From sequence record MT446421.1: a stretch of 64,000 nt of DNA. One strand, written 5' to 3'. This DNA comes from Escherichia virus TH55. The notes beneath the pieces are model-generated. The model searched no databases. It saw nothing but the letters and a program-made list of their open reading frames with translations, and was not told the DNA's origin. The position numbers were made by a program, and so were the translations under genes. Every line of letters starts with the position of its first letter. The first letter of the stretch is position 1. Shown here piece by piece: positions 18,988 to 37,560 of this stretch.

Positions 18988-19060
18988 TTTATTTCTCCAA
19001 AGTTTTGTTTGATTCAGTGTGTAACTCAGTATGGAATCATTATGCATCCAGTCAATTCGG
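18988..19060 (-). promoter_or_regulatory. early promoter/leader cassette (family 2)
   Basis: coding strand GTGTAC...CATAAT gattccatactgagttacacactg...ggag ATG. Confidence 0.45.
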
Positions 19061-19108
19061 ATGTACACTACTTTTTGAAGAAAATTTCAAATTTATTCGG
19101 GGTATAAA

Positions 19109-19127
19109 AAAGCCCGCAATGCGGGCT
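19109..19127 (-). terminator. rho-independent terminator
   Basis: agcccgc aat gcgggct hairpin next to A-run (T-run on minus strand), right after stop of 19129..19683. Confidence 0.5.
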
Positions 19128-19128
19128 G

Positions 19129-19683
19129 TTAGTTCTTATAAAAGCGGAACGGATTTATATGAAAGGCGAGCATAGCCTTAGGGATTGGTCGGGACAGAAG
19201 GCTCTTGAGCTTCCAACCACAATAAACGCGCAGATAAAAGGTGATTCCACCGACCTTGAGATAAGGAACAGAAGCAAAAACACCCCAGGCATTATCCGTC
19301 CACATCCAGAGCCATCCGTGATGAGCTTTATCCGGGGAACCGGATTCAACATCAGGATTGCCTTTATAATGGAATTCTGAATTGCAATCACGACCGAGCT
19401 TGTGGTAAGCAAAATTGTATGCTTTGTTTCGCCAGAGCCAAGCTACTCGTTGGAAGTAAACACCTAACGGCCATTTTCGGATTTTTGACCAACGTTTGAC
19501 ATGACCCCGGTCACCATCAATCGGATTATCATAAGTCATCATCCAATCAAACCCGAACGGAAGTTTACCAGTCTTTTTATTATAGAATGGAACTACAAAT
19601 GGAGCCAGGATAACGGCCAGAATCATGGAGATAAAATCCAGTGGAACTAACAGAATCCAACTCAAATATTTTAACAGTTTCAT
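19129..19683 (-). CDS. hypothetical membrane-anchored protein
   Basis: 184 aa from MKLLKYLSW with N-terminal hydrophobic helix; longer ORF start runs through upstream terminator. Confidence 0.45.
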   Translation of the reverse strand: MKLLKYLSWILLVPLDFISMILAVILAPFVVPFYNKKTGKLPFGFDWMMTYDNPIDGDRGHVKRWSKIRKWPLGVYFQRVAWLWRNKAYNFAYHKLGRDCNSEFHYKGNPDVESGSPDKAHHGWLWMWTDNAWGVFASVPYLKVGGITFYLRVYCGWKLKSLLSRPIPKAMLAFHINPFRFYKN

Positions 19684-19706
19684 ACGTTTCTCTTTAGTTG
19701 ATTTAT

Positions 19707-19735
19707 AAAAAAGCCCCAACCTTTCGGAAGGGGCT
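19707..19735 (-). terminator. rho-independent terminator
   Basis: agcccc...ggggct stem with tcgg-type loop and adjacent A-run on plus strand. Confidence 0.5.
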
Positions 19736-19772
19736 ATACCTTGTCGGGGTTCCACCTGCAAGGCAAGTGTTC

Positions 19773-20168
19773 TTATCCGCGAGCGAATGCCATTGCAGCG
19801 CGTTCGTTAGCACGGTCGGTGATGTTCAAGAATTTATCACGAGCGATTTCGATTGGAGCACCAACCCAGTCAGCAGCACCATTACCTGGAGACTGTTTAG
19901 GGCGAACCATATAAGTTGAAACTTTGGAACCGGCTAGTTTGGCACCAGGTGCCGCGGCATTTTTAACGTCTTTAGCTTTGATGCCAAACCCAGTTACGAT
20001 ACCCCAAGAAACGCCATTAACTGGTTTCTTGAACATAACACGGTCACCAATTGAAACACCGGCTTTTTCTGGAGCCACTAAAGAAAATTTACCAGCTTCA
20101 GTCAGTACGGATTCGGTGATGGTATTGCGATTTAAAAATTCTGCATATGTAAGCATTTTGTTTTCCAT
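19773..20168 (-). CDS. hypothetical protein, possible internal-protein-like leader
   Basis: 131 aa; N-terminus MLTYAEFLNRNTITE loosely resembles the MKTYQEFIAE leader. Confidence 0.4.
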   Translation of the reverse strand: MENKMLTYAEFLNRNTITESVLTEAGKFSLVAPEKAGVSIGDRVMFKKPVNGVSWGIVTGFGIKAKDVKNAAAPGAKLAGSKVSTYMVRPKQSPGNGAADWVGAPIEIARDKFLNITDRANERAAMAFARG

Positions 20169-20205
20169 TATTAGGGTTGTTGTTAATATTTATATTCCAT
20201 AGTAC

Positions 20206-20254
20206 CGGATGCACCATCCGCTCGGATTTCTCATACTACCGGACGCACCGTCCG
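20206..20254 (-). ncRNA. two tandem covarying hairpins (candidate small stable RNA or processing signal)
   Basis: cggatg-cac-catccg and cggacg-cac-cgtccg with compensatory changes, in a 225-bp noncoding stretch beside the tRNAs. Confidence 0.3.
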
Positions 20255-20392
20255 CTCTGGAAAAACTCCGTAAAAGGGTGCGCCGTTTCAGCTGTGATAT
20301 AAGGGGGCATCAACAAATCGTAAAGATTTATTAATGCCAGTCCTTAAACAGGGAACTTCAGTCCGACGACTTACCGGTAGCGACCCGGTTTC

Positions 20393-20632
20393 TCATTCAA
20401 TTGTAATAGCTAATTTGACTTTAACAACCTTATAATTGGAATCAAGGTCATTGAATTCCATAAAATTTGTTGCTAATCTGCGAGTCGGGAAACTTAGATA
20501 TTTATTATGCTCAGGTGGAGCGGTTAATGCAAACCATGGGACTTGTTTATCATTTTCATCAAACTCATCAAAGCTATAAACCAACTCGTTGTTGGTTATA
20601 TCCATAACTGCATATGATTCACTAATAACCAT
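20393..20632 (-). CDS. hypothetical protein
   Basis: 79 aa from MVISESY with GAGGA SD; longer ORF start overlaps tRNA-Arg. Confidence 0.35.
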   Translation of the reverse strand: MVISESYAVMDITNNELVYSFDEFDENDKQVPWFALTAPPEHNKYLSFPTRRLATNFMEFNDLDSNYKVVKVKLAITIE

Positions 20633-20648
20633 AATATCCTCGGTAATT

Positions 20649-20724
20649 GGTCGGGGTGGTGGGATTCTAACCCACAACCTACGGTTTAGAAGACCGTTGC
20701 TCTATACAATTGAGCTACACCCCG
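20649..20724 (-). tRNA. tRNA-Arg (anticodon TCT)
   Basis: hand-folded cloverleaf: acceptor CGGGGTG/CACCCCG, D-arm GCTC/GAGC, anticodon arm ACGGT-CTTCTAA-ACCGT, T-arm GTGGG-TTAGAAT-CCCAC, encoded CCA. Confidence 0.8.
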
Positions 20725-20800
20725 GGTGGCCCCATCCGGACTTGAACCGGAAACCTGCCAGTTATGAGCCGGATGCTCTAACCAATTGAGCTACAGGGCC
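20725..20800 (-). tRNA. tRNA-Met/Ile2 (anticodon CAT)
   Basis: acceptor GGCCCTG, D-arm GCTC-AATTGGTTA-GAGC, loop CTCATAA, T-arm TCCGG-TTCAAGT-CCGGA; anticodon stem has one mismatch; abuts tRNA-Arg. Confidence 0.7.
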
Positions 20801-20805
20801 TAAAA

Positions 20806-21075
20806 TTAAATTACAAATCCAGCGGGAGCATTATCATCTTTAACCATATGCTGAATTGTATGATAAGTCATTTCTTCTGGTGCAACCAGATAAGCCGCAG
20901 TGTTAACCAACGGGATTAATTTGACTTTATTGAATGTTGAACAACCAATTGACATAAAGGTTTCGCCTGTTGGATGCTGAATTTCGCCAAATTGGCACTC
21001 ATACGAAATAGAGCAACGTTTGGTAGTGGTTGTCTTTGTTTTAGGGTCGTAAAAAGCTAATTTTAATACTAACAT
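20806..21075 (-). CDS. hypothetical protein
   Basis: 89-aa ORF. Confidence 0.4.
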   Translation of the reverse strand: MLVLKLAFYDPKTKTTTTKRCSISYECQFGEIQHPTGETFMSIGCSTFNKVKLIPLVNTAAYLVAPEEMTYHTIQHMVKDDNAPAGFVI

Positions 21076-21195
21076 AACACCTCAAATAAAATTAAGTAAA
21101 GTAAGTTTGATTAATAGCACATGCTATTATGAAAGGTTCTTTGAGGGAAGAACCTTTGGTAATAGAGGGTACTTATTAATAATAACGCGTTTTTA

Positions 21196-21678
21196 TTAAA
21201 GCATATCAAGCGCTTTAACAGATGGGATTTGGATTTCTTCTTCGATTATATATAGCTTAACATAAGAAATTACACGCATGAAATCACCATCATTTTCACA
21301 AGCCATGCCTAAAAGTTCGGTCAGGGCTTCATTCAGGTAGTATTCTTCATCATCGCCATTTAGCAATGCATCTAAATCTTCTACACCCAGAACCTTACTT
21401 AAAAATTCATGGGTTAACTGACCAGATTTTACACCAGATGCAATGTAGTCGATAACCAAGTGTTTAACCACATCCCATTCTGAATTACCACATTTGTTGC
21501 GGTTATTGCAATGCGAACCATAGAAAAGTTCCAGGATATATTTGTACTGTTGTATTTCTTGTTCTTCTACACCAAATACAGTCTGGGTTTTATAATTATC
21601 ACCATCATTTTCCCAGGTTTCAATTTCAATCACATAACCTTTAGGGATGGTCTGACCAAATTTGATATTCATTCGCAT
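21196..21678 (-). CDS. hypothetical protein
   Basis: 160-aa ORF. Confidence 0.4.
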   Translation of the reverse strand: MRMNIKFGQTIPKGYVIEIETWENDGDNYKTQTVFGVEEQEIQQYKYILELFYGSHCNNRNKCGNSEWDVVKHLVIDYIASGVKSGQLTHEFLSKVLGVEDLDALLNGDDEEYYLNEALTELLGMACENDGDFMRVISYVKLYIIEEEIQIPSVKALDML

Positions 21679-22058
21679 GTTCCTTCATCAACAATAGTAT
21701 GCGTATTGGCATTAACAATCTGCCACCAGTCAAAACGGTTGGAACCATAACAAGGCTTCTTCTCGTTTTCTTTAATGATATCACGCAGTTCATCTTCAGT
21801 CGCAGCTTTTGCAATTAAGTCAGCATAACCGCCACGAGGATAATAGCTATCACCAGCAAAGAGCAAAAAGTTTGTTTTGATATTCTTGAATTCTTCAAGA
21901 GTAATAACTGTTCCACCCGGTTGAACAATATCCACATAACTATACCCTAATTCCTGGGCTTTATCTACTGCTTCAAGCAGGGTGTCATACGCCCACCCAA
22001 TTTGGCAATCTGATTTTTCAGATGGATTTGCCTGATAATCCGCATACACTTTATACAT
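21669..22058 (-). CDS. hypothetical protein
   Basis: about 129 aa from MYKVYADY; ORF-track N-terminus overlaps upstream gene. Confidence 0.4.
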   Translation of the reverse strand: MYKVYADYQANPSEKSDCQIGWAYDTLLEAVDKAQELGYSYVDIVQPGGTVITLEEFKNIKTNFLLFAGDSYYPRGGYADLIAKAATEDELRDIIKENEKKPCYGSNRFDWWQIVNANTHTIVDEGTCE

Positions 22059-37552: not shown

Positions 37553-37560
37553 TATAAATA
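37553..37560 (+). promoter_or_regulatory. late promoter TATAAATA upstream of gene 9
   Basis: exact TATAAATA about 28 nt before gp9 ATG. Confidence 0.6.

Follow-up and report, generated by a model that had tools for sequence, protein, structure and literature searches.

Twin hairpins beside a late promoter in a cassette that occupies the rnaC slot next to rnaD in a subset of Gapriverviruses

Introduction

The T4 genome encodes two partner small RNAs, rnaC and rnaD, whose function is unknown (PMC3014915); both are processed from a tRNA precursor and accumulate late in infection (PMC3014915, PMC9697503). Elsewhere in T4-like phages, composite cassettes that join a stem-loop to a promoter, such as the PeSL and PmSL elements, have been documented at indel hot spots, and the internal protein (IP) gene cassettes of T-even phages are unrelated small genes that possess a common regulatory leader and an N-terminal targeting sequence and are swapped between phages (PMC2839356, PMC4122927). 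Here, we analyze a 64,000-nucleotide (nt) stretch of Escherichia virus TH55 (MT446421.1), referred to below as the window, and within it the interval 20169-20392, in which an earlier note had pointed to two tandem hairpins in apparently noncoding DNA next to a pair of tRNA genes.

Comparison with related phages indicates that this interval is two separate things, the small RNA gene rnaD (20396-20277) and the start of a late-gene cassette (20276-19772) to which the hairpins belong. As in the PeSL and PmSL cassettes (PMC2839356, PMC4122927), a stem-loop comes directly before a promoter, which in turn precedes a ribosome-binding site and the beginning of an orphan reading frame; the site is one of replacement that separates close relatives, and degraded duplicate copies are found nearby. 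The promoters of those elements are sigma-70-like or of the MotA type, whereas that of the present cassette is a gp55-type late promoter; their stems are of the G-run/C-run type with a U-run, neither of which is found here; and the cassette carries two tandem hairpins with an invariant GGUGC loop. PeSL is present in many dispersed copies per genome in hyperplastic regions, in contrast to the single locus described here. We conclude that the hairpins, whose distribution is narrow, represent a variant of the stem-loop/promoter composites already known from T4-like phages and not a system of a new kind.

Results

Over the 1.2 kb around the twin hairpins, identity to Escherichia phage UPEC07 (MW250787) is 100%. 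UPEC07 is T4-like and belongs to the genus Gaprivervirus. Every gene in the surrounding part of the window lies on the minus strand. In the direction of transcription the locus comprises tRNA-Met, tRNA-Arg, an open reading frame (ORF) of 79 amino acids (aa), the "noncoding" stretch, a small gene, and an intrinsic terminator. The two tRNA genes are the stable-RNA genes upstream, and their transcripts read toward the hairpins.

A sensitive BLAST search matched the stretch to 732 of 50,697 phage records, nearly all of them only at minus-strand positions 20393-20277, a segment that is annotated in RB3, RB10, and Aplg8 as the noncoding RNA rnaD, or "species II RNA". Identity to the annotated rnaD of RB3 and RB10 is 94% over 117 nt, and these 117 nt find a match in hundreds of Tevenvirinae records. 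The homologue, of ~120 nt (~20277-20396, minus strand), starts 251 nt 3' of tRNA-Arg, with the 79-aa ORF interposed, and its 3' end reads ...GGCGCACC. In the consensus fold of six aligned variants a 5' hairpin, CCGG...CCGG, is followed by a long-range pairing of GUCGUCG with the 3'-terminal CGGCG.AC, a conserved fold consistent with rnaD being a stable RNA of ~120 nt. By homology, 20396-20277 on the minus strand is the rnaD gene of this phage. It resembles T4 rnaD, as represented by RB3 and RB10, in sequence (the 94% identity), in the conserved 5' hairpin and 3' end, and in its place 3' of tRNA-Arg, and differs from it in the 79-aa ORF between tRNA-Arg and rnaD and in the missing partner, rnaC. 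The relation to the T4 stable RNAs that the earlier note had raised is therefore correct for the interval, which holds rnaD, but not for the hairpins, which lie in the other segment; rnaC, in turn, is absent.

A covariance-model search of 19000-22000 against Rfam at E<=10 returned only the two tRNAs and noise, with nothing overlapping 20198-20276 and noise only over rnaD. The empty result over rnaD is explained by the lack of an rnaD model in Rfam, and the T4 RNA was recognized instead by BLAST homology to annotated records. In the UPEC07 record, rnaD and both tRNAs are unannotated, and a 41-aa hypothetical protein is placed on the plus strand (20209-20334) across the hairpins and rnaD. We rejected a coding explanation: this ORF overlaps rnaD, is disrupted by indels in relatives, and is probably spurious. 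Thus, the interval has no convincing ORF, as had been claimed, but it is not empty, since the rnaD homologue fills its upstream half.

While the 5' and 3' ends of rnaD are conserved, close relatives possess three unrelated central arms (~20300-20350, minus strand), one in UPEC07 and RB3, another in TH44 and UPEC01, and a third in SP18, P479, and a metagenome sequence. The cassette described below occurs together with all three arm types, and the region is therefore a recombination mosaic.

In the sister Gapriverviruses CJ20, P479, SP18, and VR7, rnaC comes right after rnaD and is followed by ACACTTGCC...terminator, as found in UPEC07 at 19771-19707. Pairwise BLAST comparison with these rnaC-carrying phages places the homology breakpoints at 20278/20277 and 19771, with the right cassette junction at 19772/19771, and 506 bp in this phage replace 148 bp (rnaC) of the sisters between identical flanks. 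On this comparison, a 506-bp cassette replaced rnaC in a subset of Gapriverviruses.

First in the cassette is a U-rich 19-nt leader, CUUUUACGGAGUUUUUCCA (20258-20276, minus strand), which lies between the rnaD 3' end and hairpin A, holds the left cassette junction, and contains a GGAG (20269-20266), a possible RegB site, that is kept in all six aligned relatives. The two hairpin units come next, followed by a T4-type late promoter, a ribosome-binding site, and a 127-aa gene. The promoter, TATAAATA (20194-20187, minus strand), is an exact match to the late consensus, is invariant in relatives, and lies 11 nt 3' of hairpin B; no sigma-70-like site was called here. The hairpin segment matches only 15 phage records, all of them Gaprivervirus (14 Escherichia phages and the Yersinia phage vB_YenM_P8), and, over 40 nt, also Kosakonia phage 305. 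The 127-aa gene and these hairpins are found in precisely the same 15 records and in two metagenome contigs that encode the 127-aa protein; these contigs carry already known hairpin variants, combined with the third type of rnaD central arm.

Repeat analysis, alignment, and folding define two hairpin units. On the plus strand the hairpins read CGGATG-CAC-CATCCG (20206-20220) and CGGACG-CAC-CGTCCG (20240-20254), exactly as the earlier note had described them. The direct repeat in which they lie, put there at 22 bp, is real and measures 26 nt (20198-20223 and 20232-20257), with 23 of 26 positions identical and a spacing of 34 nt; its 19-nt core occurs twice in the window, where 0.02 occurrences are expected by chance. 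The T of one copy is C in the other, and the A that faces it is G, which keeps the arms complementary. Read on the minus strand, unit A (20257-20232) consists of GAG (20257-20255) and the stem-loop CGGACG-GUG-CGUCCG (20254-20240), with a tail, GUAGUAUGAGAAAUCC, to 20224, and unit B (20223-20198) of GAG (20223-20221) and the stem-loop CGGAUG-GUG-CAUCCG (20220-20206), after which GUACUAUGGAA leads into the promoter. The fold energies of hairpins A and B are -9.3 and -7.9 kcal/mol, respectively, and the hairpin units in general have 6-bp stems with four to six G-C pairs and energies of -7.3 to -11.4 kcal/mol. Since the window contains 29 perfect hairpins with a 6-bp stem and a 3-nt loop, a single hairpin of this kind is unremarkable, and the case rests on the relatives.

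In relatives, the hairpins are conserved and their stems are always paired. Hairpin A reads CGGACG/CGTCCG in UPEC07, TH44, and TH54 and CGGGCG/CGCCCG in VR20, TH40, and UPEC01, a double compensatory change. In TH40 and TH44, an A-to-G change in hairpin B (CGGGUG/CAUCCG) gives a G·U pair in minus-strand RNA but a C-A mismatch on the plus strand, and the plus-strand version loses the hairpin on folding; as judged from this variant, only a minus-strand RNA fits. We counted covariation over nine distinct hairpin units, paralogues and orthologues together, from two lineages (two genera). All 54 stem cells (9 units x 6 pairs) are paired, five of the six pairs have changed on both sides, and the covariation score was reached by none of 500 shuffles. 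As a control, sliding the 3' partner by 1-3 columns lowered pairing to 15-56%. The compensatory differences previously noticed between the two copies therefore extend to orthologues. Variation reaches all 10 outer stem columns but none of the 8 columns formed by GGUGC (the loop and its closing pair) and the 5' GAG. The paired changes indicate that the stems are under structural constraint on the minus strand.

Two further pairings involving the hairpins were considered. The earlier note had proposed that the 3' arm of the first hairpin pairs alternatively with downstream sequence (ATCCG/CGGAT) in a mutually exclusive structure; this helix would enclose a loop of 2 nt, is not predicted by folding, and is broken by a C-to-A change in TH44. 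The 3' end of rnaD, GGCGCACC (20277-20285), is complementary over 8 bp to the hairpin loop and 3' arm, GGUGCG(C/U)C (20240-20248 and 20206-20214), perfectly so in VR20, and some minimum free energy (MFE) folds use this pairing in place of hairpin A. Because the complementarity is absent in Kanagawaviruses and the GGCGCACC segment is paired within the fold of rnaD itself, we regard it as probably coincidental.

A search for the GAG-preceded hairpin signature, covering the 64-kb window and 100 kb of the Kosakonia phage 305 genome, found this locus only. The element is therefore locus-specific, and a dispersed regulatory motif is ruled out. Scans of IMG/VR and metagenome contigs for hairpin patterns did not add any members. 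Matches to the tandem-hairpin pattern were coding repeats of the collagen-like Gly-X-Y type, the exact hairpin was recovered only from VR20, apart from chance matches in GC-rich coding sequence, and the pattern of a hairpin followed by ATAAATA led to release-factor genes at their GGQ motif. The hairpins may bear some resemblance to the E. coli REP elements (CCGGATGC...).

The same architecture is present in a second genus. In the Kanagawaviruses Kosakonia 305, IME523, CIP9, Q7622, and MY742, twin hairpins lie 35 nt apart, GAG-CAAGCG-GTG-CGCTTG being followed by GAG-CGGACG-GTG-CGTCCG or GAG-TGGACG-GTG-CGTCCA, and the second hairpin ends 8 nt 5' of ATAAATA, ahead of a gene whose product starts MLNFNEFITE. 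UPEC07 copy A and the Kosakonia copy nearest the promoter are identical, the 5' flank CCAGAG included, and the tail of copy A, GTAGTATGAGAAATCC, matches the Kosakonia/Kanagawavirus promoter region ATATGATAAATA by eye at 10 of 13 positions. From these matches, copy A looks like a hairpin-plus-promoter unit whose promoter has decayed, and copy B like a later duplicate that kept or improved its promoter. Homology between UPEC07 and the Kanagawaviruses spans the hairpins, the promoter, the ribosome-binding site, and the targeting leader of the gene, and then stops, as has been described for PeSL cassettes and for the shuffling of internal protein genes (PMC2839356, PMC4122927).

The Kosakonia-type gene belongs to a widespread family, phrog_2280, with 145 matching records. 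In JS09, JS98, PG7, Pet-CM3-4, Marfa, and fHe-Yen9-01, a strong UUCG-loop intrinsic terminator lies 5' of the phrog_2280-type gene, and TATAAATA or CATAAATA comes a few nucleotides after it; a terminator followed by a late promoter is also found at 37553 and 44143 in the window. CHI14 and Vettismorki (Winklervirus), as well as EcS1, possess between terminator and promoter one degenerate, non-hairpin remnant of GAGCAAGC.... UPEC07-type phages have no terminator there and nothing but the twin hairpins between rnaD and the late promoter. The hairpins thus share their position with the terminator/late-promoter junctions of T4-like phages, at which a GC-rich hairpin 3-11 nt 5' of TATAAATA ends the tRNA/small-RNA cluster. 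Those junctions have one stem of 7-12 bp, a UUCG loop, and a U-tract, whereas the present locus combines two stems of 6 bp with GUG loops and lacks a U-tract; by the standards for an intrinsic terminator, the GC-rich stem-loop is present and the U-tract is not.

Two observations on the leaders of these other phages stand apart from the hairpins. In Kosakonia phage 305, ~600 nt of unannotated noncoding DNA follow the tRNA cluster (L003, 976-1575) and hold an rnaC-like 3' domain (tagcgtcaac...ggttcgaatcc...) and a second T-arm-like stretch with no Rfam match, which probably represent further tRNA-like small RNAs. Furthermore, the late promoter of Kanagawavirus and Winklervirus leaders is flanked by the two arms of an 8-nt inverted repeat, GAAUAUGA...UCAUAUUC (L003 ~1527-1570 and equivalents). 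The repeat ends 1-2 nt 5' of the ribosome-binding site AAGGA and is a candidate translational mask of the gene e type for read-through RNA.

The gene that the cassette delivers is an orphan of 127 aa (19773-20156, minus strand), whose start was set by comparison with relatives. At 20161-20164, just 5' of the start codon, UPEC07 has A4 and the relatives A5. The fifth A puts ATG 20168, the start proposed in the earlier note, out of frame, and the gene therefore most likely starts at ATG 20156; in VR20 it is annotated from the downstream ATG, whereas A4 in UPEC07 brings ATG 20168 into frame, hence the annotation of 131 rather than 127 aa. With one A fewer, UPEC07 also has its ribosome-binding site closer to the ATG.

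The 127-aa protein is found in only 15 phage records, in 14 of them at 100% amino-acid identity and in one at 99.2%, with a single further match, a 98% cluster, among 5.8 billion proteins; searches of Pfam, PHROG, NCBIfam, and PDB gave no match. The sequence at its N-terminus, MLTYAEFLNRNTITE/SVLTE/AG, can be aligned with leaders of the pattern M-K/L-T-Y/F-x-E-F-I/L-x-E, which are those of the annotated internal head proteins (22.3-23.1 kb) and of RB3 IpI, and also with the phrog_2280 family, although the resemblance between the UPEC07 and Kosakonia phage 305 proteins is limited to the first ~20 residues. The leader resembles a capsid-targeting sequence with (L/I)xE protease sites, and no family model matches it. 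These similarities suggest that the gene is a late, prohead-targeted, "internal protein"-like gene, the product of which would be a packaged head protein. Like the T-even IP gene cassettes, it combines a regulatory leader and a targeting sequence with a gene of unrelated sequence; the elements at the IP loci, however, are early promoters with AT-rich stem-loops (PMC2839356), and the present cassette occupies the rnaC slot rather than the IP loci at 22.3-23.1 kb.

The remaining features of the locus lie on the minus strand as well. tRNA-Met(CAU) (20800-20725) and tRNA-Arg(UCU) (20724-20648) were called by ARAGORN and matched the Rfam tRNA model at 62-74 bits. The 79-aa ORF between tRNA-Arg and rnaD (20393-20632) belongs to phrog_33509, a family of unknown function, and is missing from TH40, RB3, and the metagenome contig L318, in which tRNA-Arg directly adjoins rnaD; its stop codon overlaps the rnaD start. 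Downstream of the cassette, the intrinsic terminator AGCCCCUUCCGAAAGGUUGGGGCUUUUUU (19707-19735) is common to the rnaC-carrying phages. The DUF7338 gene (19129-19683), labeled "holin" in the UPEC07 record, comes after this terminator and a near-consensus late promoter, TATAAATC, in the 19700-19735 region. At 19070-19137, Rfam gave a sub-threshold match to STnc370, an enterobacterial small RNA (36.7 bits, gathering score 54; E = 0.01). A bidirectional terminator hairpin (19111-19127) falls within this match, which most likely reflects that terminator only.

Discussion

T4 late transcripts begin a few nucleotides downstream of the late promoter TATAAATA. The hairpins lie upstream of this start, and only RNA that reads through from the tRNA/rnaD operon could contain them. 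We tentatively favor an explanation in which they supply the stem-loop of a composite leader of the "stem-loop + late promoter" kind: a cassette of hairpins and late promoter has replaced rnaC beside rnaD, and the hairpins, folding in the minus-strand read-through tRNA/rnaD RNA, may serve as a transcript-boundary element that separates the stable-RNA precursor from the late mRNA. They occupy the place where related phages have an intrinsic terminator directly 5' of the late promoter. Such a boundary might work in one of three ways. The hairpins might block 3'-to-5' exonucleases and so set the 3' side of the stable-RNA precursor, they might attenuate read-through, or, if the U-rich leader is cleaved, they might come to stand at the 5' end of the downstream fragment. 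A part in the processing or bounding of the tRNA/rnaD precursor, in line with the tRNA-processing signal suggested in the earlier note, is thus possible. The comparisons above establish the identity of rnaD, the exchange of rnaC for the cassette, the promoter, and the structural constraint on the stems, whereas the action of the hairpins in RNA is inferred.

Several observations weigh against a boundary role. Both hairpins lack a U-tract on their 3' side (tails GUAGUAUG and GUACUAUG) and the terminator scan does not call them, which means that they are not canonical intrinsic terminators. The invariance of GGUGC and GAG beside a varying outer stem fits specific recognition better than a generic barrier, and the motif, confined to one locus in the window and in the 100 kb of Kosakonia phage 305, is not dispersed. 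CHI14, Vettismorki, and EcS1, with their one degenerate non-hairpin copy, evidently manage without the hairpins. Finally, the sample comprises two lineages plus paralogues, and templated mutation at quasi-palindromes of the T4 type could yield paired changes without selection on RNA.

The main rival explanation addresses the invariant loop directly. The hairpins would be operator sites for a specific phage or host RNA-binding factor, like lambdoid boxB or phage coat-protein operators, whose binding would control processing, stability, or read-through of the transcript that runs from the tRNAs and rnaD into the late gene. On our analysis this is unlikely, though it accounts well for 8 invariant columns (loop, closing pair, and 5' GAG) against 10 varying ones (post hoc P ~1e-5) and for a tandem arrangement whose spacing of 34-35 nt is kept in two genera, and a stem of 5-6 bp with a loop of 3-5 nt would suit hairpin-binding peptides. 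Yet no candidate binding protein was identified, the motif is present at one locus only and related phages lack it, and its invariance rests on few and partly recently diverged sequences. The boxB hairpins of the lambdoid nut sites are likewise short nascent-RNA hairpins with covarying stems and a conserved loop; the loop here is not GNRA-like, no boxA or N-like protein was identified, and the resemblance is one of form only. A second possibility that takes the segment as an RNA in its own right is that it survives precursor processing as a small stable RNA of ~70-90 nt in the rnaC slot, in keeping with the sRNA suggested in the earlier note. It does come after rnaD, where the sisters have rnaC, its two stable hairpins could protect a fragment, and rnaC and rnaD are themselves products of tRNA-precursor processing that accumulate late (PMC3014915, PMC9697503). 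Such an RNA is nonetheless improbable: the segment has no sequence or structural similarity to rnaC, no Rfam match even at E<=10, and no promoter or terminator of its own, its fold as a whole is no better than that of shuffled sequence (z = -0.3), and the Kanagawavirus hairpins come after a terminator-like stem, with an rnaC-like RNA also present. Taking the two possibilities together in a bolder form, there is a slim chance that the twin GAG...GGUGC hairpins are a dedicated recognition element, either an operator for an RNA-binding or processing factor of phage or host or the core of a new stable RNA in the rnaC slot.

The opposite view is that the hairpins have no function. A DNA quasi-palindrome in the promoter leader, duplicated by slippage, would have been kept perfect by templated (strand-switch) mutation, which mimics covariation, and T4 is the classical system for mutation templated by quasi-palindromes. 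The stems do change as fast as their flanks, and the element is narrowly distributed and dispensable in related genera. We nevertheless consider this explanation unlikely, given that the stem has been kept through at least 5 independent double changes with no broken pair, that two phages carry the G·U state, and that loop and flank are invariant and two copies have been retained in two genera. Least probable is a riboregulator or translational mask, which the evidence has already largely refuted. In its favor, GUUUUUCCA (20265-20258) shows complementarity to UGGAAAAAC, found at the ribosome-binding site in relatives, and T4 offers a precedent in which a late promoter lies inside the 5' strand of a masking helix (PMC3014915). 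However, pairing with the ribosome-binding site was never formed in MFE or ensemble folds of six relatives, the probability for the A-run being <=0.3, UPEC07 has lost one A, and no such complementarity involves the hairpins of the Kanagawaviruses. A masking leader of the type found at T4 gene e, soc, 49, or I-TevI was accordingly rejected, the GUUUUUCCA/UGGAAAAAC helix being unfavored in all six relatives folded. The riboregulator that the earlier note had suggested fares no better on loop size, conservation, or folding, with its 2-nt loop and its break in TH44.

For the annotation of this phage group, our analysis provides a correction: rnaD is present but unannotated and is overlapped by a probably spurious coding sequence on the opposite strand, and rnaC is absent. 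Near-identical phages that carry either rnaC or a late-gene cassette in one and the same slot constitute a natural experiment on the role of rnaC, a question open since the 1970s. With this locus, the "promoter + stem-loop" cassettes already known to shuffle among T4-like phages also gain a version with a late promoter, a small hairpin, strong covariation, and an invariant loop. If the loop is not specifically recognized, the element is one more boundary hairpin and of local interest only. If it is, it would point to an RNA-binding activity in T4-like infections that is as yet unknown, and a recognition element or new small RNA at this site would couple the maturation of the tRNA/rnaD precursor to the expression of an injected head protein.

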